DNA from: an uncultured virus (IMG/VR IMGVR_UViG_3300028416_000010)
Taxonomy: Duplodnaviria; Heunggongvirae; Uroviricota; Caudoviricetes
Reading direction: 5' to 3' (one strand)
Length of the DNA: 64,000 bases
Virus record (IMG/VR): IMGVR_UViG_3300028416_000010
This document shows, one piece after another, positions 4,274 to 46,963 of the stretch. The notes beneath the pieces were generated by a model that saw only the letters and a list, made by a program, of their open reading frames with translations, was not told the origin of the DNA and ran no database searches. A program made the translations under genes and the position numbers. Position 1 is the first letter of the stretch. Every line of letters begins with the position of its first letter.

Positions 4274-5065
4274 TTAAACATATTTAACTATTTCGCAATA
4301 ACCTATTCTAAACTCACCATCCTCATCAATAAGATATTCACCACTAGGTAAAGTATCAATATAATAATATCTACCACCTGTACTTTTACCTTTAATATCA
4401 ATAGTATCTTGTTGTGTATGTCCTACAATTTGAATATAATTCTTTTTTAAATCAGATTGTTTATTTGATAATTGTAATGATTTAGGTCGAATCCATATAG
4501 GAGATTGTCCTTCATTATCACCATAACCATTTGGACTAAACCCTGTATTGTTTCTATCATAATACCCATTAAATGTAAATTGGTTTGGTTTATGATGATA
4601 TAAATCATTGATAAACTCTCCAACACTATCGTAGTCTTCATAATCGTGAGACCAATAACCTGTATCTTTTAAGAATGTTTCACTGATACCAGCGTGAGTA
4701 CATAATCTATCATCTATTTGAACACACATTTGAAAGTGTTCTTTATTTTCATCAAAAAACATTTCAAATTCATACATCATATTGGCGTTGAAACCAGATG
4801 TTGAACCTTTACCTGTAATACCTCTCATGTAGTGGATGTCGTGATTTCCAATAAGTAGATAAACTCGTTTAGTTGGGTCTAATTCTTGTAATTTCTTAAA
4901 CTCAACAATATCACGAGCGTTTCTTAATTGTACTGTACCAGGAATATCAAATGAATCAAAGTAATCAGCGATAAAGACAATGTTATCTGCGTCCTTATGT
5001 TGTTCAACAATCTCCTTCCATATGTCTCTACCATGGATGTCTCCTATGTATATATTTTTTCCCAT
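4274..5065 (-). CDS. Calcineurin-like metallophosphoesterase
   Basis: Motifs GDIHG, ADYFD, GNHD, THAG, VGHT. Confidence 0.9.
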   Translation of the reverse strand: MGKNIYIGDIHGRDIWKEIVEQHKDADNIVFIADYFDSFDIPGTVQLRNARDIVEFKKLQELDPTKRVYLLIGNHDIHYMRGITGKGSTSGFNANMMYEFEMFFDENKEHFQMCVQIDDRLCTHAGISETFLKDTGYWSHDYEDYDSVGEFINDLYHHKPNQFTFNGYYDRNNTGFSPNGYGDNEGQSPIWIRPKSLQLSNKQSDLKKNYIQIVGHTQQDTIDIKGKSTGGRYYYIDTLPSGEYLIDEDGEFRIGYCEIVKYV

Positions 5066-5087
5066 AAACAGATATACTAAAAATTAT

Positions 5088-5381
5088 TTAATTATCTTTA
5101 TATTTCTCTCTAATTCTACCAAAAACTTCTTCATATGTCCATACCCAATTCATTTTTCCTTGTGATTCACCGATTAATATTGACCACAACTCTTTACCTC
5201 TTGGGTTATAGATTTCACCAGTGTCTTCAACAAAACCAGTCTCATCGTTTAATTCGGTTTCTCTAACCACAAAAGGTTTAATATACATAAACCAAACCCA
5301 CTTAAATGGTATTAAGATATACCATCTATATCTCCATAGTTTTTCAACCCAATTACATTCTTGAAATCGTTTATTTTTCAT
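5088..5381 (-). CDS. Hypothetical protein
   Basis: 97-aa Trp-rich ORF in operon context. Confidence 0.65.
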   Translation of the reverse strand: MKNKRFQECNWVEKLWRYRWYILIPFKWVWFMYIKPFVVRETELNDETGFVEDTGEIYNPRGKELWSILIGESQGKMNWVWTYEEVFGRIREKYKDN

Positions 5382-5432
5382 TTTTTATATTGTTTCCACT
5401 AATATAGTGTTTTTAATTGGATTAAACAACAT

Positions 5433-5773
5433 TTATACATGAAATCTTTTATAATTATAGAATATGTCATAACCGATAACTTTATCACTCATTTCGTAAT
5501 ACGTAGTATAGTGGTTACTACGAAAACCTTCAATCATACAAAAAATATATACAAAAGTATATTCACGCCCAGAAGAAATCTTTTTTAATCTCATATATAA
5601 AATATTTTAGTAGACCCATTTTCGAGGTAACCAAATGTTGTTAAATCATCATTATATCGTCTGACGGTATGATTACTAATGATTTGTTTATATTCACAGT
5701 ACCCATACCAAGCACCATGTTTATAGAGTATCCTACAACCTCTGTTAAATTCTTTACTTTTCGTCAATCTCAT
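5433..5773 (-). CDS. Two 'MRL.K...K.F' family proteins (5433-5594, 5591-5773)
   Basis: MRLKKISS...YKRFHV and MRLTKSKE...TKIFYI, joined by an ATGA overlap. Confidence 0.65.
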
Positions 5774-6110
5774 CGTTTAATATATAAATTTCGTTTAATT
5801 CGTATCTTTGCCCTTTTGTTGAAACGATATTGATGTTTGGTCTTATACCAACCCATTTAAAACCATGTTCTTTTTCATGATTATTGATTTCAACCATTTC
5901 ATATATATTTCTCATGTTGGGTTGGTTTTTGGATTTTTTATCAGCTAAGTTTTTTATTACCTTGTTCGAATCACTATCAAATGTCATTTCCATGTTAATT
6001 CTAACACGTTTTATTTCACCTATAGTTTCACTACCATATTTAGAAACATATACGAATCGTCTACCTACCCACATTTTTTCTAGTAATGATTTTACACTAT
6101 CCATATCCAT
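5754..6110 (-). CDS. Hypothetical protein
   Basis: 118-aa ORF. Confidence 0.7.
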   Translation of the reverse strand: MDMDSVKSLLEKMWVGRRFVYVSKYGSETIGEIKRVRINMEMTFDSDSNKVIKNLADKKSKNQPNMRNIYEMVEINNHEKEHGFKWVGIRPNINIVSTKGQRYELNEIYILNDEIDEK

Positions 6111-6160
6111 TATTTCGTTTTTATATTTTTCTGATAATCTTTTTATAATCTTATTCTTTT

Positions 6161-6347
6161 TGCTACTGGGGTGGGAATCGAACCCACAACCGAAAAGGTG
6201 TCTCTCATTTTCTTCATCAATATTATACCTAGCCTCAGTATTTTTCTATCAGAATATTAAAGTCTTACCTTAATCTCTTTAAGTTCGCCAGCCTAACTGA
6301 AATATCGTCCTTAAAGCATCGTGTTTTTCCTCTTAAACTACCCAATA
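6161..6347 (-). ncRNA. tRNA-like RNA with ~130-nt insertion replacing the anticodon arm
   Basis: Acceptor stem TATTGGG/CCCAGTA, D-arm GTTT-AAGAGGAA-AAAC, perfect T-arm GTGGG-TTCGATT-CCCAC. Confidence 0.7.
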
Positions 6348-6355
6348 ATATATTT

Positions 6356-6416
6356 TAGTACTCATACATGAATCGAACATGTTCGGAAGTCGTTCTCCTA
6401 GTAACCAACATGAGCT
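6356..6416 (-). ncRNA. Minimal tRNA-like element (acceptor + T-arm)
   Basis: GCTCAT/ATGAGT stem and ACATG-TTCGATT-CATGT T-arm, with only ~27 nt between them. Confidence 0.55.
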
Positions 6417-6484
6417 ATATATTAGGTAATGGAATCGAACCATCTAGAGTGAACCGCCTACTCATTGACCAAATAGTCCTAACA
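6417..6484 (-). ncRNA. Degenerate tRNA-like element
   Basis: TGTTAGG/CCTAATA acceptor, GAGT-N9-ACTC hairpin, ATGG-TTCGATT-CCAT T-arm; no D-stem. Confidence 0.55.
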
Positions 6485-6490
6485 TAATTT

Positions 6491-6590
6491 AAAAAATCTC
6501 AAAGGGGTCGTTGTAACCTTCATCTTAAACCTTTTCTAGAATGGGTTTAAAACCTGTTTCTCAGTTACCTCCATGATTAGGAGAGATTAT
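6491..6590 (-). ncRNA. 5'-truncated copy of the stem-closed ncRNA at 8435-8559
   Basis: ~100 bp near-identical to 8435-8533, with a compensatory C-G/T-A change in the TTAAAC/GTTTAA hairpin. Confidence 0.6.
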
Positions 6591-6723
6591 ATTAATACTA
6601 ATTCTTTAGCTTGGCCTTTATCTGCATAACATTGCAATATGTTTGCATGGTAATAATCATGTACTTTATAATCATCGTTTTTAAAAATAATATCACGTGT
6701 GTTATATTGGTCTCTAATTAATC

Positions 6724-7195
6724 TCATATCCAAAATCTTTTATTTTTATCATTTTTATCATAACCCAATATTGAACCAAGTTCGGTTCTATAATATATAT
6801 AACCCAACCATTTCAATTTCATAAAACCAAGACCACAAATACTTGTATTATAAAAACAATATGGATGTAACTCTTCTTTTTTCAATCTCATATATTAAAT
6901 CTTTTATCAACATACCAAACACAATATCCGATGGTGGTATTATTAATTAGATAAAAATTATTTGAGTCATTCAAGAAATAACCTTCATGTTGAGCATTAT
7001 TTCGTTTTATAAAACAATACTCTCTATATTGAACTTTTCTTAATCTCATATCCAAAATTTTATTTTATCATGTATTCTACTATAACCTTCAAACCAATAA
7101 TATTGTGAACCTTTATGTTTATAATATCCTCTAACATTATCGTACTCATTTTTATAGAAACAAAGTTCAACAAATATACTTTTTCCTAATCTCAT
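6724..7195 (-). CDS. Tandem of three 'MRL.K...K.(F)WI/FNI' family proteins (7046-7195, 6888-7049, 6724-6891)
   Basis: Manually translated 49-55-aa ORFs chained by ATGA overlaps; a fourth starts at 6727 and runs into the ncRNA copy. Confidence 0.7.
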
Positions 7196-7207
7196 ATATA
7201 AAACCTT

Positions 7208-7777
7208 TTATTCTTCATCTTTAAAAAAACCATAATTACCTTTTAAGAACCCATTAATTAGATTCATTTGTATTGGTACTCGTGTCACAAACATATAGTA
7301 TTCCACCATCCTATTCACTATAAAGATAACATCTTCTTCTGTATATGTTTTCTTATCCATCTTATAAGTTTTAAACGCTTCTTTAAGTTTTTCGTTTGGT
7401 TCTGGGGGATTTTCATTTGTTTCTATGATGGTCTTAACATCTTCCTCAGATAAATCCAAAGTATCACTTGAACCTTTTTTAGCTTCAGTTAATTCTTCTT
7501 CAGATAATCTACCCACAACCTCAATTTCAGATTCAATATAACCAAATGGACCTGGTTTCATACCCAGTAACTCTTCGACATTATATTGGTATTTTCTATC
7601 AATGGCTACCCAACTATCAAAACCAACACCTTGATGATTATTGTCATAGTATCTAACATCTAATTTATCCAAATCAATCACAACAAAATACTGACAACCA
7701 TTAACCGTTTGGTTAATATCAATGATGTCACCATTCTTAATTTCTTGATAGTTTTTGTCTTTAGCTACTCTTTTCAT
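7208..7777 (-). CDS. Hypothetical phage protein (YopX-like N-terminus possible)
   Basis: 'DKNYQEIKNGDII...EIEVVG' pattern resembles the YopX C-terminal motif. Confidence 0.5.
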   Translation of the reverse strand: MKRVAKDKNYQEIKNGDIIDINQTVNGCQYFVVIDLDKLDVRYYDNNHQGVGFDSWVAIDRKYQYNVEELLGMKPGPFGYIESEIEVVGRLSEEELTEAKKGSSDTLDLSEEDVKTIIETNENPPEPNEKLKEAFKTYKMDKKTYTEEDVIFIVNRMVEYYMFVTRVPIQMNLINGFLKGNYGFFKDEE

Positions 7778-8010
7778 AATCTTATTATCTTATAAGCCCA
7801 TTAATTTATTTATAATTTCTTTTCTTCTATTGTTTATTTGACTTAACTCATTTAATAAAATTGTTTGTTCTTGAAGTATTTCTTGATTTTCATCTAAAAT
7901 AACAACTTTTTCAAAAGATTCACTAGAAGTGTCAAAGTTATCTAAAAAACCTAAAGAATTTTGTAATCTTCTTAATTTATTAATATCAACCGATTTATAA
8001 CTTTTTTTAA

Positions 8011-8418
8011 TCATAATATATGTTTTTTAGCGTTTTCTAAATAAAATATGATATTTTCTTTACCTTGTGGGTTTGCTGAATGTACATGATATTCGGGTAT
8101 TCTAACACCTTTATCTAAACAATATTCAACTAACCATTTAGCACAATCCATACCAGTTTTCTCCATACTACCAAACTTCATATTCATTTCATCTTCGGAC
8201 ATATTATCATAATCTTCAGGTTTGAATTCATAGTGAAAATCAGCCAAATCATGGTCAAATGAAATTATATCAGGTAAACCATTTTTAGTGATGTAATCTA
8301 CAAATTCACCAAAGTTCCTAACTGTATCCCAACCTTCTTCCCAATAAAGTTTGGCGTTTGGCATATAGTAACAAGCATCCTTAACTTGTCTCATATCATC
8401 TAAAAATAGTTTTTTCAT
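8011..8418 (-). CDS. Cyclic-phosphate-processing receiver-domain protein
   Basis: LFLDDMR, ISFDHDL, TGMDCAKWL, HSANPQG motifs. True start is likely MKKLFLDD at 8418; the track extension overlaps the ncRNA. Confidence 0.8.
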   Translation of the reverse strand: MKKLFLDDMRQVKDACYYMPNAKLYWEEGWDTVRNFGEFVDYITKNGLPDIISFDHDLADFHYEFKPEDYDNMSEDEMNMKFGSMEKTGMDCAKWLVEYCLDKGVRIPEYHVHSANPQGKENIIFYLENAKKHIL

Positions 8419-8434
8419 AGTCTTAATATAATTA

Positions 8435-8559
8435 AAAAATCTCAAAGGGGTCATTGTGACCTTCATCTTAAATCTTTTCTAGAATGGATTTAAAACCTGT
8501 TTCTCAGTTACCTCCATGGCTAGGAGAGATTATTTCGATATTAATCTTCCTTTGAGATT
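8435..8559 (-). ncRNA. Self-promoted structured ncRNA closed by an AATCTCAAAG/CTTTGAGATT stem
   Basis: TACATTTG promoter immediately upstream, terminal stem followed by a T-tract, internal hairpins. Confidence 0.65.
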
Positions 8560-14560: not shown

Positions 14561-15043
14561 TTAAAATAACGAATTTAATAACACTGGTTTATAGTTTAAT
14601 TGTTCACAACACACATTTATATATCTTTCATCACCAATAATATCTTCATGTAAATGTCCATGTATGTTGATTTTAAATCTCTCTAATTCAATTGGATGTA
14701 TTGGTATATGTGTTAAAACATATCCTTTCTTTTTGTCTGTTACAGCACCAGAAACAGCGTTAACGTATTGTAACATTTTTTCGTTGTGTGAAGTTTTACA
14801 CATATCATGGTTACCTAAAACAACTTTTTTATTACCCTTTAGTAGACCTAGTTTATAATATTCAGAAGATTTCTCCATTGTTAAATCCCCTAAAATCCAT
14901 GTTGTATCACCTTTATTTACTACACTATTCCATGAATCGATAATGTGTTGGTCGTGTTCCTCTACACTACCAAACCCTCTATAGATAGCCATATTTTTAT
15001 GACCTAAATGTAAATCAGATATTATATAAACTTTTCCACCCAT
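14561..15043 (-). CDS. Calcineurin-like phosphoesterase (phage RNA-repair-associated type)
   Basis: SDLHLGH, LGD, GNHD, THIP, NIHGHLH motifs. Confidence 0.9.
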   Translation of the reverse strand: MGGKVYIISDLHLGHKNMAIYRGFGSVEEHDQHIIDSWNSVVNKGDTTWILGDLTMEKSSEYYKLGLLKGNKKVVLGNHDMCKTSHNEKMLQYVNAVSGAVTDKKKGYVLTHIPIHPIELERFKINIHGHLHEDIIGDERYINVCCEQLNYKPVLLNSLF

Positions 15044-15934: not shown

Positions 15935-16978
15935 TCATAATAATTTATATTCTGGTTTTAATAATTTCCATATATAATTCGAATAGTTTTTTCCATCATA
16001 CATTCTGAATAATATCGGTTGTAAGTGTTTGTCTTGTTTCTTAACCCATTCAGCATAAAACTTCTTCTCTGGTAAATCACCATCATAATTTTCGTATAAC
16101 ATATCAAACAACTTACCAGCATGTTCACTTATGGACATGAAACCATACTTTAATGATTTCTCATAGTCTCTTATTTGTGGGTAAAACTCATCTGGTACAC
16201 CATCAAAAACTTCTTCTATTGATTCACCATTTGATAATATCTCCCACACTGACTTAGTAGATATCATTGATATTATTCTATGAAGTCTTATATACTCTTC
16301 ACCTTTGATTTTCATTTTGTCACCATTGGAGAATCTAACAACAAAACCTTCTTCATTATCACCAACCATATCTTTCAAAAGGGTGAAGTCTTTTATACCA
16401 TCGTATTTCTTAACAACACTTAAACTTATGTTGGATATTAAGTTTTTAAATCTTATAGGTCCGTTGTGGATGTCTATCTCCTCACCAGACTCAGTATTTA
16501 TCATTCCCAATAATATAACGTCTTCAAATGAATATTTAACCACTATATGATTTTCATTATATATTATTTCAAATAGATAAGTATAATCTTTGTGTAATTT
16601 TTGGTATTCGTATTTGGATAATAATTCTAAACCTCTAACAGATTGTTCTGAAGTGAATGAACCACGAGTGGCGAATATCCATTCACCCTTGTAGTTAAAA
16701 AGTATTCCCAATGAACCATCCATTTTATCATAAACGCCAAAGTCTGAAGTTGGTGTGTGTTTACCCTCTTCCATATTGAAGAATTTTTTGAAAGGACGTG
16801 CTACTATATTACCTTCATCATCAGTTACCAACCCTCTACATTGTAATAGAGTTTCATCCCATAAACCTTCATATTGAACCTTATCTGAATAGTTCCATAT
16901 GGTTAATGGTAATGAAGGGTGTTTTTGACTAAACAATAAACCTTCTGATTCGTATTTATGTAATAATTTTAAATCCAT
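15935..16978 (-). CDS. T4 Rnl1-like RNA ligase
   Basis: Motif I KMDGS, plus RPFKKFFN, ATRGSF, LFEII, EGFVV, KIK. Confidence 0.9.
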   Translation of the reverse strand: MDLKLLHKYESEGLLFSQKHPSLPLTIWNYSDKVQYEGLWDETLLQCRGLVTDDEGNIVARPFKKFFNMEEGKHTPTSDFGVYDKMDGSLGILFNYKGEWIFATRGSFTSEQSVRGLELLSKYEYQKLHKDYTYLFEIIYNENHIVVKYSFEDVILLGMINTESGEEIDIHNGPIRFKNLISNISLSVVKKYDGIKDFTLLKDMVGDNEEGFVVRFSNGDKMKIKGEEYIRLHRIISMISTKSVWEILSNGESIEEVFDGVPDEFYPQIRDYEKSLKYGFMSISEHAGKLFDMLYENYDGDLPEKKFYAEWVKKQDKHLQPILFRMYDGKNYSNYIWKLLKPEYKLL

Positions 16979-26835: not shown

Positions 26836-26983
26836 TTGACCGACTTCAGGATTCGAACCTGTTTGTTCCATATTAGTTGACTACGTTAAGGTTATTTCCC
26901 TACTCGAGTTATTATTCCCATCAACATATTATTAGGAATAATCCTTGCGTCCAAGGACCGTGTATACCATCCACCAAGTCGGT
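26836..26983 (-). ncRNA. tRNA-like RNA with ~85-nt structured insertion in the anticodon arm
   Basis: Acceptor CCGACTT/AAGTCGG, D-arm GTG-GATGGTATA-CAC, T-arm CAGG-TTCGAAT-CCTG; insert hairpins TCCTTG/CAAGGA and TTATTCC/GGAATAA. Confidence 0.7.
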
Positions 26984-44449: not shown

Positions 44450-44784
44450 ATCTTTTTTTTGTATAATATAGTAAACTAATTTCAATGTAATCAAAAAAAC
44501 TTAAAAATTTTTTGGATGGTGAAGGTTTTTCTGGGGGGGTGTTTTTATGTTTATATGATATACAATATTATTAACGTATTTTCCGAAAAAATATTACAAA
44601 ATTTTCTGAAAATATTTTCTTTTTATTGTATACCATTCCCCCCCAATTTTAACAATTCCATCCATCTTCACCAGCAGCTGCAAACCTGCCGTAACTGTTA
44701 CAATTAATTTATTCCCCCAGGAAAAACAAAAAAGCGAACCTAAAAATAGATTCGCTCAATTGTGTAATTTAAATAAAGATAATC

Positions 44785-46590
44785 TTATATGTTTTTAAAT
44801 AAAAATTCTTTTTTTGTTAATTTAGCATTTTCTTCACTTTCGATTTCTGCTTCTAAATTTTCTATTAAATTGCCTATGTTAGGGATTTTATTCTTTATTT
44901 CATTCAATCCTTTTAATTCTTCAATCTCAGGAATACCATTAACCATACTTGCTGAAACGATATCCTCCGAAGGATTAAAACCATAATCTCTTAGTTCAGT
45001 GATTAACTGTGTTAAATTAGATTTATCATCTTCATTACTATGAATAACGTTAGGAATAATTATGTAAGCAAAAGGTTTATTAAACTCTCTAAAATTTTCT
45101 ACTGTTAACATTTCTTTTTCCAAATTAACTCTATCCTCTTTATCTAATCTTGCACATCTTCCAAATGTTTGTAAAAATTTAGATTTATTCAAAGTTCTTA
45201 AAGGCATAATTCCTGTAAAGCCACTTACATCAATTCCTTCTGCTAATATATCATAATGTAAAACAATCATCTCTTTTGTCTTATCATTACCACTTAAAGT
45301 TAAAAAAGCATAAACCTCTTTTAGTAATTGATAAGTTAATAATATCCTAGGGGCATTTACAACATAAATTCTAAATTGGCCTGGATTCATTAAAATGTCA
45401 TTCCCTATAATTGCTGATTGACAAAAAGTATTATGAGTTACAGTGAAATCTCCCAAAACAAAACGTCTATTTCCATCAATCTCAAAACCATAATAATCTC
45501 CTTCTCCTACCAATTCTACCTTAACACCAACATTAAGAACATTTTTAATTTGTCCTCTTTTTGTTGCTTTTTTTCTCGGTAATAAAGTTGGTATTGTATC
45601 TGTATCTCCACTAATATGACATCTAAAATATTCTCCTTCAAAATCTATTTTATTTATCTTAGCAATTTTATTTTTCTTATAACATGAAAACCCTAATGAC
45701 CTAATAAGAAAAATTAAATCATCCATCAACGTTTCATTAACTAATGTAATTTCAAAACAATTGCTAGATAAATGACCATCTCCATCTAAAATACCAGCCA
45801 ATAAAGCCATTCTCTCTTTTCTACTTGCAGTCTTATATAAAAGAGGTATGTGTTTATTATTAATTAAATTTAAGTCACGTAAAACGTTTAAAAAAATATT
45901 AGTATCCTTACTTGCTCTACCTTTAAATTTTGTATTTAAAGAAAAGTATTTACAATTTTCAGAGTCATTAGTTATTTTTAAATTTAAATCTAAATTGATA
46001 GCTTCTTTTTCTAAAAAATCAATTATCTCAACATCATTTGGATTAACGCTTATTCCTTGAACTCTTGAATTGCCATCTGCTAACCATAAACCTAATAAAT
46101 AAGGATTCAAAGGAAGTTCTTCTTTTTGTTCTTCAAAATCTACTCCTACCCTAAAACCTTTCAATGAATGTTTGGCAGTCTTAGAAACGTTAAGATAATC
46201 TTTTACTGTTATATCAACAATATCGCCTGTTCTATATTTTTTATCTAAAATAGTTAGATTATTTTTTCCAATACCAGTAACTCTTAAAGAAAGAATATGA
46301 CTTTCATTAACAGTATATTTATCTCCTTTAGTCGGTATGATATCATACATATTTTCCCTACCTCTAGCTAGTGATAATACTTTTCTTGGCTTACTATCAT
46401 CTCCCATTAATAAATCTCCAACTATTACGTCTTCAACATTTTTAATAGTACCATTGTACATCAAAATTTTTGTACCTTTCGCTAAACACTTACCTGTACC
46501 TGTGGGTAAACAAATTATTCCTTTTGGATTATAAAATGTTTTTGTAACAGCCTCTTTCTGATAATGATATAATTTACTTAAAATGTCCAT
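44785..46590 (-). CDS. SF2 (ResIII/DEAD-like) helicase with intein, apparently internally deleted
   Basis: Q motif, PTGTGK|T Walker A, APRILL, EGIDV, QTFGRCAR; no DExH/motif III region. Confidence 0.8.
   Translation of the reverse strand: MDILSKLYHYQKEAVTKTFYNPKGIICLPTGTGKCLAKGTKILMYNGTIKNVEDVIVGDLLMGDDSKPRKVLSLARGRENMYDIIPTKGDKYTVNESHILSLRVTGIGKNNLTILDKKYRTGDIVDITVKDYLNVSKTAKHSLKGFRVGVDFEEQKEELPLNPYLLGLWLADGNSRVQGISVNPNDVEIIDFLEKEAINLDLNLKITNDSENCKYFSLNTKFKGRASKDTNIFLNVLRDLNLINNKHIPLLYKTASRKERMALLAGILDGDGHLSSNCFEITLVNETLMDDLIFLIRSLGFSCYKKNKIAKINKIDFEGEYFRCHISGDTDTIPTLLPRKKATKRGQIKNVLNVGVKVELVGEGDYYGFEIDGNRRFVLGDFTVTHNTFCQSAIIGNDILMNPGQFRIYVVNAPRILLTYQLLKEVYAFLTLSGNDKTKEMIVLHYDILAEGIDVSGFTGIMPLRTLNKSKFLQTFGRCARLDKEDRVNLEKEMLTVENFREFNKPFAYIIIPNVIHSNEDDKSNLTQLITELRDYGFNPSEDIVSASMVNGIPEIEELKGLNEIKNKIPNIGNLIENLEAEIESEENAKLTKKEFLFKNI
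45430..46488 (-). mobile_element. Intein with LAGLIDADG homing endonuclease (353 aa) inserted in Walker A
   Basis: Starts CLAKGT and ends VTHN followed by T; LLGLWLADG and LLAGILDGDG motifs. Confidence 0.95.
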
Positions 46591-46963
46591 ATAGTAATAA
46601 CGAATTTATTTTTAAAATATTACATTTCTATAATAATATAGCAATCTGTTTTTAATGTAATCAAAAAAACTTAAAAAACTTTTTTGGATGGTGAAGTTTT
46701 TTCTGGGGGGTTGTTTTTATGTTTATATGATATACAATATTATTAACGTATTTTCCGAAAAAATATTACAAAATTTTCTGAAAATATTTTCTTTTTATTG
46801 TATACCATTCCCCCCAATTTTCACAATTCCATCCATCTTCACCAGCAGCTGCAAACCTGTCATAACTATTACAAATAATTTATCTTCCCAGAAAAAACAA
46901 AAAAGCGAACCCAAAAATAGATTCGCTCAATTGTGTAATTTAAATAAAAAAAATATAATCTCT

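Follow-up and report, generated by a model that had tools for sequence, protein, structure and literature searches.

A tRNA-framed RNA gene with a 114-nucleotide insert in a small-RNA array of an uncultured marine phage

We analysed a stretch of 64,000 nucleotides (nt) of DNA from an uncultured virus of the class Caudoviricetes (IMG/VR record IMGVR_UViG_3300028416_000010), referred to below as the window. With 27% G+C the window is AT-rich; it is phage-like and has almost all of its genes on the minus strand. The element studied here, E1, is an RNA gene built on a transfer RNA (tRNA) frame and belongs to an array of small RNA genes. In the order of transcription this array contains a leader RNA (called hiRNA), two mini tRNA-like elements (M2, then M1), E1 and finally the open reading frame (ORF) ORF118. 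A preliminary description, made from the sequence alone, had placed at 6161-6347 a tRNA-like RNA whose anticodon arm was replaced by an insert of ~130 nt. These bounds were right to within 1 nt, and the element was assigned to the minus strand. The size of the insert depends on where its bounds are drawn: about 131 nt lie between position 26 and the variable loop, in agreement with the earlier estimate, and 114 nt (6310-6197) are left when the remains of an anticodon stem and loop are taken into account. E1 is a genuine RNA gene of tRNA origin, conserved, expressed and so far uncatalogued. Coordinates of the features can be found in Table 1.

Direct reading of the sequence confirmed that intact acceptor, D- and T-arms surround the long insert, as previously reported. 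The canonical tRNA features of the frame are all present: acceptor stem, U8, A14, G18G19, A21, G53, a UUCRA T-loop and C61. The gene encodes no CCA, a point already made in the preliminary description; the discriminator G is followed by CAAAA. The chance occurrence of such a frame was evaluated with dinucleotide-preserving shuffles (n=5000) of the 400 nt upstream of the E1 T-arm. A fully pairing partner for the acceptor strand appeared in 461 of the 5000 shuffles, and the combination of this partner with U8 and a 4-bp D-arm with GG in its loop in 3 of 5000 only. Two models were used to score the element, one (R1) built from 20 tRNAs of a related 214-kb phage and the other (R2) from E1 itself. 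R1 matched the 3' part of E1 at 20.5 bits (E 9e-4) and skipped the middle. R2, whose score on E1 is 242.5 bits, recovered 8/8 annotated T4 tRNAs (14.0-31.5 bits) and gave 20 matches at E<=0.01 in the tRNA clusters of relatives. Given the rarity of the arrangement in shuffles and the scores of both models, the frame of E1 is therefore a genuine (class-I) tRNA frame.

Standard finders pass over this gene. With default settings, ARAGORN reports 0 tRNA genes in the window. The Infernal search against Rfam that had been proposed earlier was run and gave 0 matches in the window at gathering thresholds. In E-value mode, E1 produced a 17-nt match of its T-arm within the clan of transfer-messenger RNA (tmRNA), at 15.5 bits. 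At E<=10, the region 6150-6360 gave 11 weak matches, with no intron family and no tRNA match listed. The Rfam matches obtained for E1 and for the leader alone were at chance level, weak look-alikes of C/D-box small nucleolar RNAs among them. E1 lacks the 5-bp anticodon stem, the 7-nt loop and the RF00005 family score that define a canonical tRNA.

The insert occupies a precise place in the tRNA frame. In its intron mode, ARAGORN proposed two differing models. The cleaner one is a 72-nt tRNA labelled 'Stop'(uua), with a 114-nt insert exactly at 37/38; its anticodon stem consists of C27-G43, G28-C42, A29-U41, a U30-U40 mismatch and G31-U39, and its loop (CUUUAA|U) carries C32, U33 and A37 around the anticodon UUA, followed by a variable loop of 3 nt. 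The alternative model, Ser(uga) with a 92-nt intron, has poor stems. When the insert was shuffled, 276 of 300 versions of E1 were also called intron-bearing tRNAs, and the call therefore carries no weight. As evidence for an intron the ARAGORN output was rejected on both counts, the differing models and the shuffles, and the geometry alone was retained. The 37/38 geometry likely records, as modelled, the history of a tRNA gene that received an insertion in its anticodon loop, and is not proof of splicing.

In the fold of lowest energy, E1 has its loop bases CUUUAA paired with insert bases 65-71. Two hairpins are predicted in the insert, H1 (RNA nt 32-71) and H2 (74-92). In the 37/38 model the final base of the insert is C, not G. 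No bulge-helix-bulge motif was seen at the splice sites by eye, no dedicated tool being used, and Pfam, in 75 scans that covered 66 distinct ORFs of the 64-kb window, gave no splicing endonuclease domain. Local alignment of the E1 insert with that of E2, a second tRNA-frame element of the window described below, was no better than 28/300 shuffles, and that of E1 with the leader RNA no better than 89/300. The longest exact complement between E1 and the minus-strand transcripts of the window, which might have indicated an antisense target, is 11 nt. One 15-nt repeat of E1 sequence lies on the same strand at 2242-2256.

A metagenome scan with ORF118 as query gave 22 related loci (L039-L060). One of them, L043, contains a twin of E1 (L043:2873-3058; R2 score 242.3 bits) identical to it at 182 of 186 bases (97.8%). 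The two copies differ by A20>G in the D-loop and at three insert sites, nt 54 (in a hairpin loop), nt 141 and nt 142, two of which are outside predicted pairs. The 55-nt frame thus has 1 change and the 131-nt middle 3, and the insert is therefore as conserved as the frame. L043 and the window share 12 aligned segments at 73.3-96.6% identity. The best segment is E1 (96.6% including a few flanking bases) and the second is the leader RNA (95.6%); the remaining ten lie at 73.3-90.3%, those flanking the array at 90.3% and 83.4%. The likeness around E1 starts at the first acceptor base and stops right after the discriminator and the C at 6162. L043 and the other array-bearing relatives are mosaic relatives of the window.

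Beyond this pair, homologues are scarce in the collections searched. R2, run on the window and the 22 metagenome loci, found E1 in the window and L043 only, and gave 0 further homologues in 4 related virus records. Neither a 24-mer nor a 17-mer of E1 had a match in IMG/VR (0 and 0), and the 3' 22-mer of E1 was found in 0 of 185,579 species genomes. Among GenBank phages, no DNA match was obtained for 5000-8000, and E1 gave matches the size of a T-arm only. Loci found via the protein of cREC, the cyclic-phosphate processing receiver gene of the window, have no tRNA-like element within 10 kb.

The window stretch is present in 24 listed seawater sequencing runs, of which 6 are RNA libraries. Contigs of three RNA runs (X8, X12, X20) and one DNA run (X4) were compared. 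In X8, E1, including the insert and 5-8 nt on each side, is covered by a 199-nt contig (6157-6355; 0 differences). In X20, a single adapter-to-adapter fragment (6172-6417) joins M1 and E1, again unspliced, and begins within 1-2 nt of the first base of M1. E1 is thus present in RNA libraries in unspliced form. No joint skipping the insert was seen in the contigs of the three RNA runs, from which a rare or short spliced product could escape. Holes in the cover are uninformative: X12 and the DNA run X4 have none over E1, and X8 and X12 none over M1/M2. Contig cover is very uneven, from 0 to 276 across 1.6 kb, which argues for an RNA signal rather than for contaminating DNA.

The neighbours of E1 in the array are also tRNA-like. 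M1 matches R1 at 17.0 bits (E 0.01) and reads, from its alignment to this model, as a derivative of a Gly(UCC) tRNA. The T-arm of M2 scores 8.5 bits with R1. Both elements recur in a second relative, at L041:1762-1889, where M1 is 98% and M2 94% identical; pair 1-72 of M1 is G-C there instead of G-U. No working tRNA is detected in the array by default ARAGORN. The composition of the array varies: L041 has the leader, M2 and M1; L043 has the leader, E1 and another tRNA-like element, with ORF118 further on; in L046 the leader is followed by an ORF, without a tRNA-like element. The additional element of L043 (L043:3113-3187) directly follows the E1 copy. It is near-canonical, with an R1 score of 38.3 bits, and is missed by ARAGORN; its loop is CAGCAAG with A33, and its two top acceptor pairs are mismatched.

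The leader RNA is 93-95% identical in three relatives (L041:1658-1759, L043:2766-2866 and L046:728-828). Of its 26 predicted pairs, 1 shows a compensatory change. With all copies summed, its contig depth was 47-276 in the RNA runs against 6-11 in the flanks, and 7 against 5 in the DNA run. The window contains a second copy, ahead of which a strong promoter-like sequence (TTGAAA-18-TATAAT, 11/12, TG-extended) was found at 8586-8557. Loose ends of contigs at 6489 and 6590 correspond to the flanks of this second copy. The leader RNA belongs to no Rfam family and had 0 matches in IMG/VR; a 20-mer had 3 exact genome matches, and the one examined (L061) showed no further likeness. Possible roles are those of an attenuator, a riboswitch-like switch or a small RNA. 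A 189-aa (amino acid) ORF (7208-7777), situated between the leader copies, has a borderline match to the TacA antitoxin domain (E 3e-4; 21.1 bits, the cut-off being 21); the toxin paired with TacA acts on charged tRNA.

ORF118 encodes a small conserved protein with an invariant FVY-SKYG motif, and is found downstream of the leader/tRNA-like array in four phages (window, L041, L043 and L046). Its predicted structural model has a mean confidence (pLDDT) of 87.7, and Foldseek against the Protein Data Bank gave at best a match at E 0.016, among weak likenesses to tandem Tudor and Sm-like barrels. In PHROGs, it matched a family of unknown function only (E 0.008).

The window contains a sister of E1. 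This element, E2, combines a D-arm and a T-arm with an acceptor stem that pairs perfectly; a closed 8-bp hairpin with a conserved GACG loop stands at the position of the anticodon arm, and a domain of 74 nt at that of the variable arm. A homologue with 84% identity occurs in two relatives (L040:2743-2888 and L042:3194-3339), whose copies are identical to each other and whose flanks do not align with those of E2. Among the 41 predicted pairs, the comparison with this homologue gave 8 compensatory changes, 2 one-sided changes and 0 broken pairs. With these compensatory pairs and the closed hairpin, E2 is therefore a structured RNA under selection and unable to decode.

Table 1. Location of E1 and of the other features of the window. 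Positions are those of the whole stretch; RNA sequences are written 5' to 3' on the strand given.
Feature	Position	Strand	Size and remarks
E1, whole tRNA-frame RNA gene	6162..6347 (6347->6162)	minus	186 nt
E1 acceptor stem, 5' strand UAUUGGG	6341..6347	minus	7/7 pairs with 6164-6170, one U-G
E1 U8 A9	6340-6339	minus	between acceptor 5' strand and D-arm
E1 D-arm GUUU-AAGAGGAA-AAAC	6323..6338	minus	A14, G18, G19, A21 present
E1 remnant anticodon stem, 5' strand CGAUG (6321-6317), and loop CUUUAA (6316-6311)	6311..6321	minus	ARAGORN intron model; would-be anticodon UUA
E1 insert	6197..6310	minus	114 nt at tRNA position 37/38; predicted hairpins H1 and H2 plus a less certain 3' part
E1 U38, remnant anticodon stem 3' strand UUUCG (6195-6191) and variable loop GUU (6190-6188)	6188..6196	minus	variable loop of 3 nt
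E1 T-arm GUGGG-UUCGAUU-CCCAC	6171..6187	minus	G53, U54, U55, C56, A58, C61 present
E1 acceptor 3' strand CCCAGUA and discriminator G	6163..6170	minus	followed by C and A-rich DNA, without CCA
M1, mini tRNA-like	6358..6415	minus	58 nt; acceptor, D-arm, T-arm; anticodon stem gone, CUUCCGA linker
M2, mini tRNA-like	6420..6483	minus	64 nt; acceptor with 6/7 pairs, T-arm, no anticodon arm
Leader RNA (hiRNA), copy 1	6489..6590	minus	~100 nt; first array element; closing stem AAUCUC/GAGAUU, then U-run
Leader RNA, copy 2	8432..8533	minus	identity to copy 1 94%; just ahead of the probable true start of cREC
ORF118	5754..6110	minus	first protein gene after the array; 22 related loci
cREC (cyclic-phosphate processing receiver domain)	8011..8466	minus	Pfam PF20274, E 2.1e-21
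Rnl1-type RNA ligase	15935..16978	minus	Pfam PF09511, E 2.1e-17; 38% identity to phage RNA ligases
Metallophosphoesterases	4274-5065 and 14561-15043		Pfam
E2, second tRNA-frame RNA	26838..26983	minus	146 nt; directly upstream of SHMT

We propose, with a probability of roughly 0.55, that E1 is a stable, non-decoding RNA gene on a complete class-I tRNA frame, in other words a tRNA look-alike. The processing, the stability and the function of this RNA are what we infer. E1 would be transcribed from the minus strand as part of the small-RNA array, between M1 and ORF118. Its acceptor stem and the elbow formed by the D- and T-loops would lead host tRNA enzymes to excise and finish the RNA, RNase P making the 5' end, and a 3' nuclease together with the CCA-adding enzyme making the 3' end; the latter enzyme is invoked because the gene encodes no CCA. 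Such tRNA-type processing would make the RNA stable. The 114-nt insert is predicted to pair with the former anticodon bases and may be displayed as a folded domain where an anticodon arm ends; with these bases paired to the insert, E1 would therefore be unable to read codons. In the contest between phage and host over tRNAs, it could act as a decoy, as a sponge or as a carrier of the insert. The setting may be relevant to such a role: the same leader stands ahead of the RNA-repair gene cREC, and the Rnl1 ligase and the phosphoesterases are encoded in the same early region.

A non-decoding RNA on a tRNA scaffold fits what was observed for E1, namely the tRNA frame with its intact elbow, the conservation of the whole element including the insert, the unspliced form in RNA libraries, the array with its non-decoding tRNA-like neighbours, and the sister E2. 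A tRNA-elbow mimic or decoy was one of the two readings offered in the preliminary description. Its structural half stands: the elbow nucleotides are all kept, and the would-be anticodon is predicted to be paired. It gains further from the insert being conserved like the frame, from the unspliced contigs, and from M1, M2 and E2, which are tRNA-like yet unable to decode. Its functional half, the decoy, is kept here as one possible role.

Several results weigh against the scaffold reading. An intron would look like this, the insert occupying the exact canonical intron position with a plausible loop around it. The whole E1 fold is no stabler than that of shuffled sequence (z -0.55), and a U>C variant at nt 88 (run X20) disrupts one of the predicted H2 pairs. 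Only 2-3 nearly identical copies of E1 are known and no base pair of the insert is backed by covariation; there are so few differences between the copies that no E1 pair can be tested in this way. The comparison among homologues suggested in the preliminary description thus brought no support for the insert, the copies being too similar. One coding segment of L041 is 97.3% identical to the window; in mosaic relatives, recent exchange and not selection is therefore a possible cause of the high identity of E1. Unspliced E1 was found in the contigs of two of the three RNA runs, X12 having no cover over E1. Contigs give neither the ends, the strand nor the abundance of an RNA, and DNA can occur in RNA libraries. 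Finally, no binding partner or target of E1 was found.

We think it unlikely that E1, M1 and M2 are simply cis-acting punctuation, that is cut signals for RNase P and RNase Z that separate the leader from the ORF118 mRNA and yield pieces with no job of their own. The head-to-tail arrangement of the elements between the leader RNA and the first ORF would suit such a role, and their number and order differ between the window, L043, L041 and L046, as expected if any tRNA-like element can serve. The start of the X20 fragment near the first base of M1 is a weak hint in the same direction. However, a cut signal needs no 114-nt insert, yet the insert is conserved like the frame. L046 does without any tRNA-like element, and E2, with its covarying internal fold, stands alone ahead of SHMT. 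As pure processing signals, M1 and M2 are better candidates than E1.

It is also improbable that E1 is a functionless tRNA gene in decay, its anticodon loop broken up by an insertion, and that it owes its identity with L043 to recent recombination between mosaic phages. The relatives are indeed mosaic and some coding DNA is equally similar (97.3%), covariation is not available for E1, its fold is no better than that of shuffles, and M1, M2 and the additional tRNA-like element of L043 look like damaged tRNAs. Against decay, all universally conserved tertiary nucleotides of the E1 frame are intact. Decay would also have to account for E1 being the best of the 12 L043 segments, with conservation that stops exactly at its ends, for its presence in RNA libraries, and for the similarly built E2, which is under structural selection.

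Another doubtful explanation is that E1 is an intron-bearing tRNA. An unknown nuclease would cut out the 114-nt insert at 37/38, and Rnl1, cREC and the phosphoesterases would heal and seal the ends, giving a 72-nt ochre suppressor with the anticodon UUA. The exact position of the insert, the loop with C32, U33 and A37 and the pairs C-G, G-C, A-U and G-U speak for it, as does the presence of RNA-repair genes in the same region. The preliminary description had pointed to a nearby Rnl1-type ligase and phosphoesterases; both were recovered by Pfam, and cREC was found besides. A modified tRNA of 72 nt would, moreover, escape metatranscriptomes at the contig level. A parallel exists in the tRNAs of Lak megaphages, described as carrying highly conserved introns of unknown mechanism in genomes that encode a T4-type RNA ligase (Devoto et al., bioRxiv 10.1101/356790). 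Against these points stand the shuffled inserts that ARAGORN also accepts (276/300) and the two models it gives for the real sequence. The spliced stem would be weak (3 Watson-Crick pairs, 1 G-U, 1 U-U) and the variable loop would have 3 nt. The anticodon would be ochre in a region where TAA ends 32 of 41 ORFs, SHMT among them. The insert is as conserved as the exons, no spliced joint occurs in the contigs, no splicing endonuclease domain was found by Pfam among the window ORFs, and no bulge-helix-bulge was seen by eye. A tRNA with a protein-spliced intron, the other reading of the preliminary description, is thus not supported, on the grounds of the weak stem, the UUA anticodon, the missing joint and the missing endonuclease domain. 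Recoding of TAA was considered and discarded, as reading TAA as sense just fuses neighbouring genes.

Group I introns are usually about 200 nt or longer and have a terminal G. The E1 insert has 114 nt, ends in C and matches no intron model of Rfam. The preliminary description had already judged the insert too short for a typical group I intron and the element too short for a tmRNA; this agrees with the Rfam search, where a T-arm match was all that was obtained. A more elaborate proposal seems to us a distant prospect: the phage would splice E1 with its own repair enzymes, a nuclease cutting at either end of the insert at 37/38, cREC and the phosphoesterases trimming the ends and Rnl1 joining them, and would release on demand an ochre-suppressor tRNA(UUA) or another working tRNA, the shared leader serving as a common switch.

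Very improbable, and rejected, are the readings of E1 as a small tmRNA, as a Y-RNA-like (YrlA) RNA or as a phage attachment site copying part of a host tRNA gene: its T-arm does score 15.5 bits with the tmRNA model and 14.7 bits with that of YrlA, but the former match covers 17 nt for a gathering score of 47 and ARAGORN in tmRNA mode gives 0, the latter is limited to the T-arm for a gathering score of 69 and the ends of E1 form an acceptor stem where those of YrlA form a different helix, and for the attachment site both tRNA halves are present in E1, its 3' 22-mer occurs in 0/185,579 species genomes, and no integrase or Ro-type domain was found by Pfam in the window ORFs.

Two phage systems resemble E1. 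The passages on RNAC and RNAD of bacteriophage T4 in PMC3014915 and PMC12685909 give the role of these RNAs as unknown. RNAC (species 1 RNA, rnaC, 139 nt), as read from the T4 record, consists of a T-arm and a terminal stem around long hairpins. Like E1, RNAC and RNAD are small phage RNAs encoded head to tail, on the coding strand, with tRNA or tRNA-like genes, with a T-arm by the terminal stem, long hairpins and no anticodon loop. There is, however, no sequence relation: R2 scores 13.3 bits on rnaC (E 0.029), below all 8 T4 tRNAs, and R1 matches the rnaC T-arm only (14.3 bits). E1 is also far more tRNA-like, with its 7-bp acceptor, U8, a D-arm with G18G19 and a remnant anticodon stem, and differs in that its array has no working tRNA by default ARAGORN.

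The second system is that of the Lak megaphages, whose tRNAs are reported to contain 'enigmatic', highly conserved introns (10.1101/356790). According to this description, on which the comparison is based, these are over-long phage tRNA genes missed under bacterial settings, with an insert in the anticodon loop that is near-identical across phage genomes, no known splicing mechanism and a T4-type RNA ligase. Lak phages differ, as described there, in infecting gut Prevotella, in using an alternative genetic code and in having the sense anticodons Phe, Gly, Thr and Tyr. E1 would carry UUA on a weak stem, in a marine phage region where TAA is a stop. The Lak 'enigmatic introns' are, among the parts of the literature available to us, the nearest description in print, and no account of the E1 RNA or of such arrays was found beyond them and T4 RNAC/RNAD. 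By these comparisons, E1 is best read as an RNA of the T4 RNAC or Lak 'enigmatic intron' kind.

The arrangement is also familiar from the laboratory. In engineered tRNA scaffolds, the anticodon end of a tRNA receives a foreign RNA, which the tRNA enzymes of the cell then process and stabilise. E1, with its insert at the anticodon end, has the same design. Such engineered RNAs (PMC3753655, PMC3401473) are man-made, and E1 would be processed and stabilised in this way by inference. Other tRNA-shaped RNAs described as non-decoding and cut by tRNA-processing enzymes are the t-elements of plant mitochondria (PMC1920247) and the mascRNA of MALAT1 (PMC8457004). As far as these sources describe them, they are small and have no conserved insert of 114 nt, and they are matched better by M1 and M2 than by E1.

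Many tRNA-shaped genes of phages escape standard finders and are absent from RNA catalogues. T4 RNAC and RNAD have been without a known role for about fifty years, and the introns of Lak tRNAs are unexplained. The E1 locus offers a well-defined case, with a full frame, a classic intron site, unspliced RNA in natural samples and a covarying sister. To us the most interesting lead is the leader RNA common to the tRNA-like array and to cREC, a physical link to RNA-repair genes. Should E1 and its like prove to be decoys, carriers or tRNAs spliced under certain conditions, the phage-host contest over tRNAs would gain an RNA layer. A scaffold RNA of this kind would be a natural version of the laboratory tRNA-scaffold trick, and splicing by the phage repair enzymes, should it occur, would give bacterial viruses their first known case of enzyme-catalysed tRNA splicing.

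Other unusual tRNA-like elements were noted in related phages. In the 214-kb relative, ARAGORN gives two 'tRNA-???' genes with irregular anticodon loops. An odd 80-nt tRNA-like element with a CUUAUAU loop, of which R1 matches the T-arm only, lies at L009:1395-1505 (G001, minus strand), within the 27-tRNA cluster of this relative. A more distant phage of higher G+C content (L008; G004:49292-49452, minus strand) has a 57-nt tRNA-like element that scores 40.9 bits with RF00005, its acceptor, D and T arms being joined by an 8-nt linker. It adjoins a 92-nt element with two T-arm-like hairpins, and ACAAA follows both.

Pfam also identified SHMT, a sigma factor and an rIIA-like protein in the window. 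From 36000 to 64000, promoter-like sites (up to 19 copies) are repeated between short ORFs, together with paired palindromes of the TTTTCCGAAAA type (up to 13 copies) and terminator-like hairpins (7 copies), a pattern typical of a phage early region. Within this part of the window, an ORF of 601 aa (44785-46590) has Hint and homing-endonuclease domains and is intein-like. It is flanked by direct repeats of ~290 nt (44503-44788 and 46675-46959) that are 91-97% identical and 2.17 kb apart.

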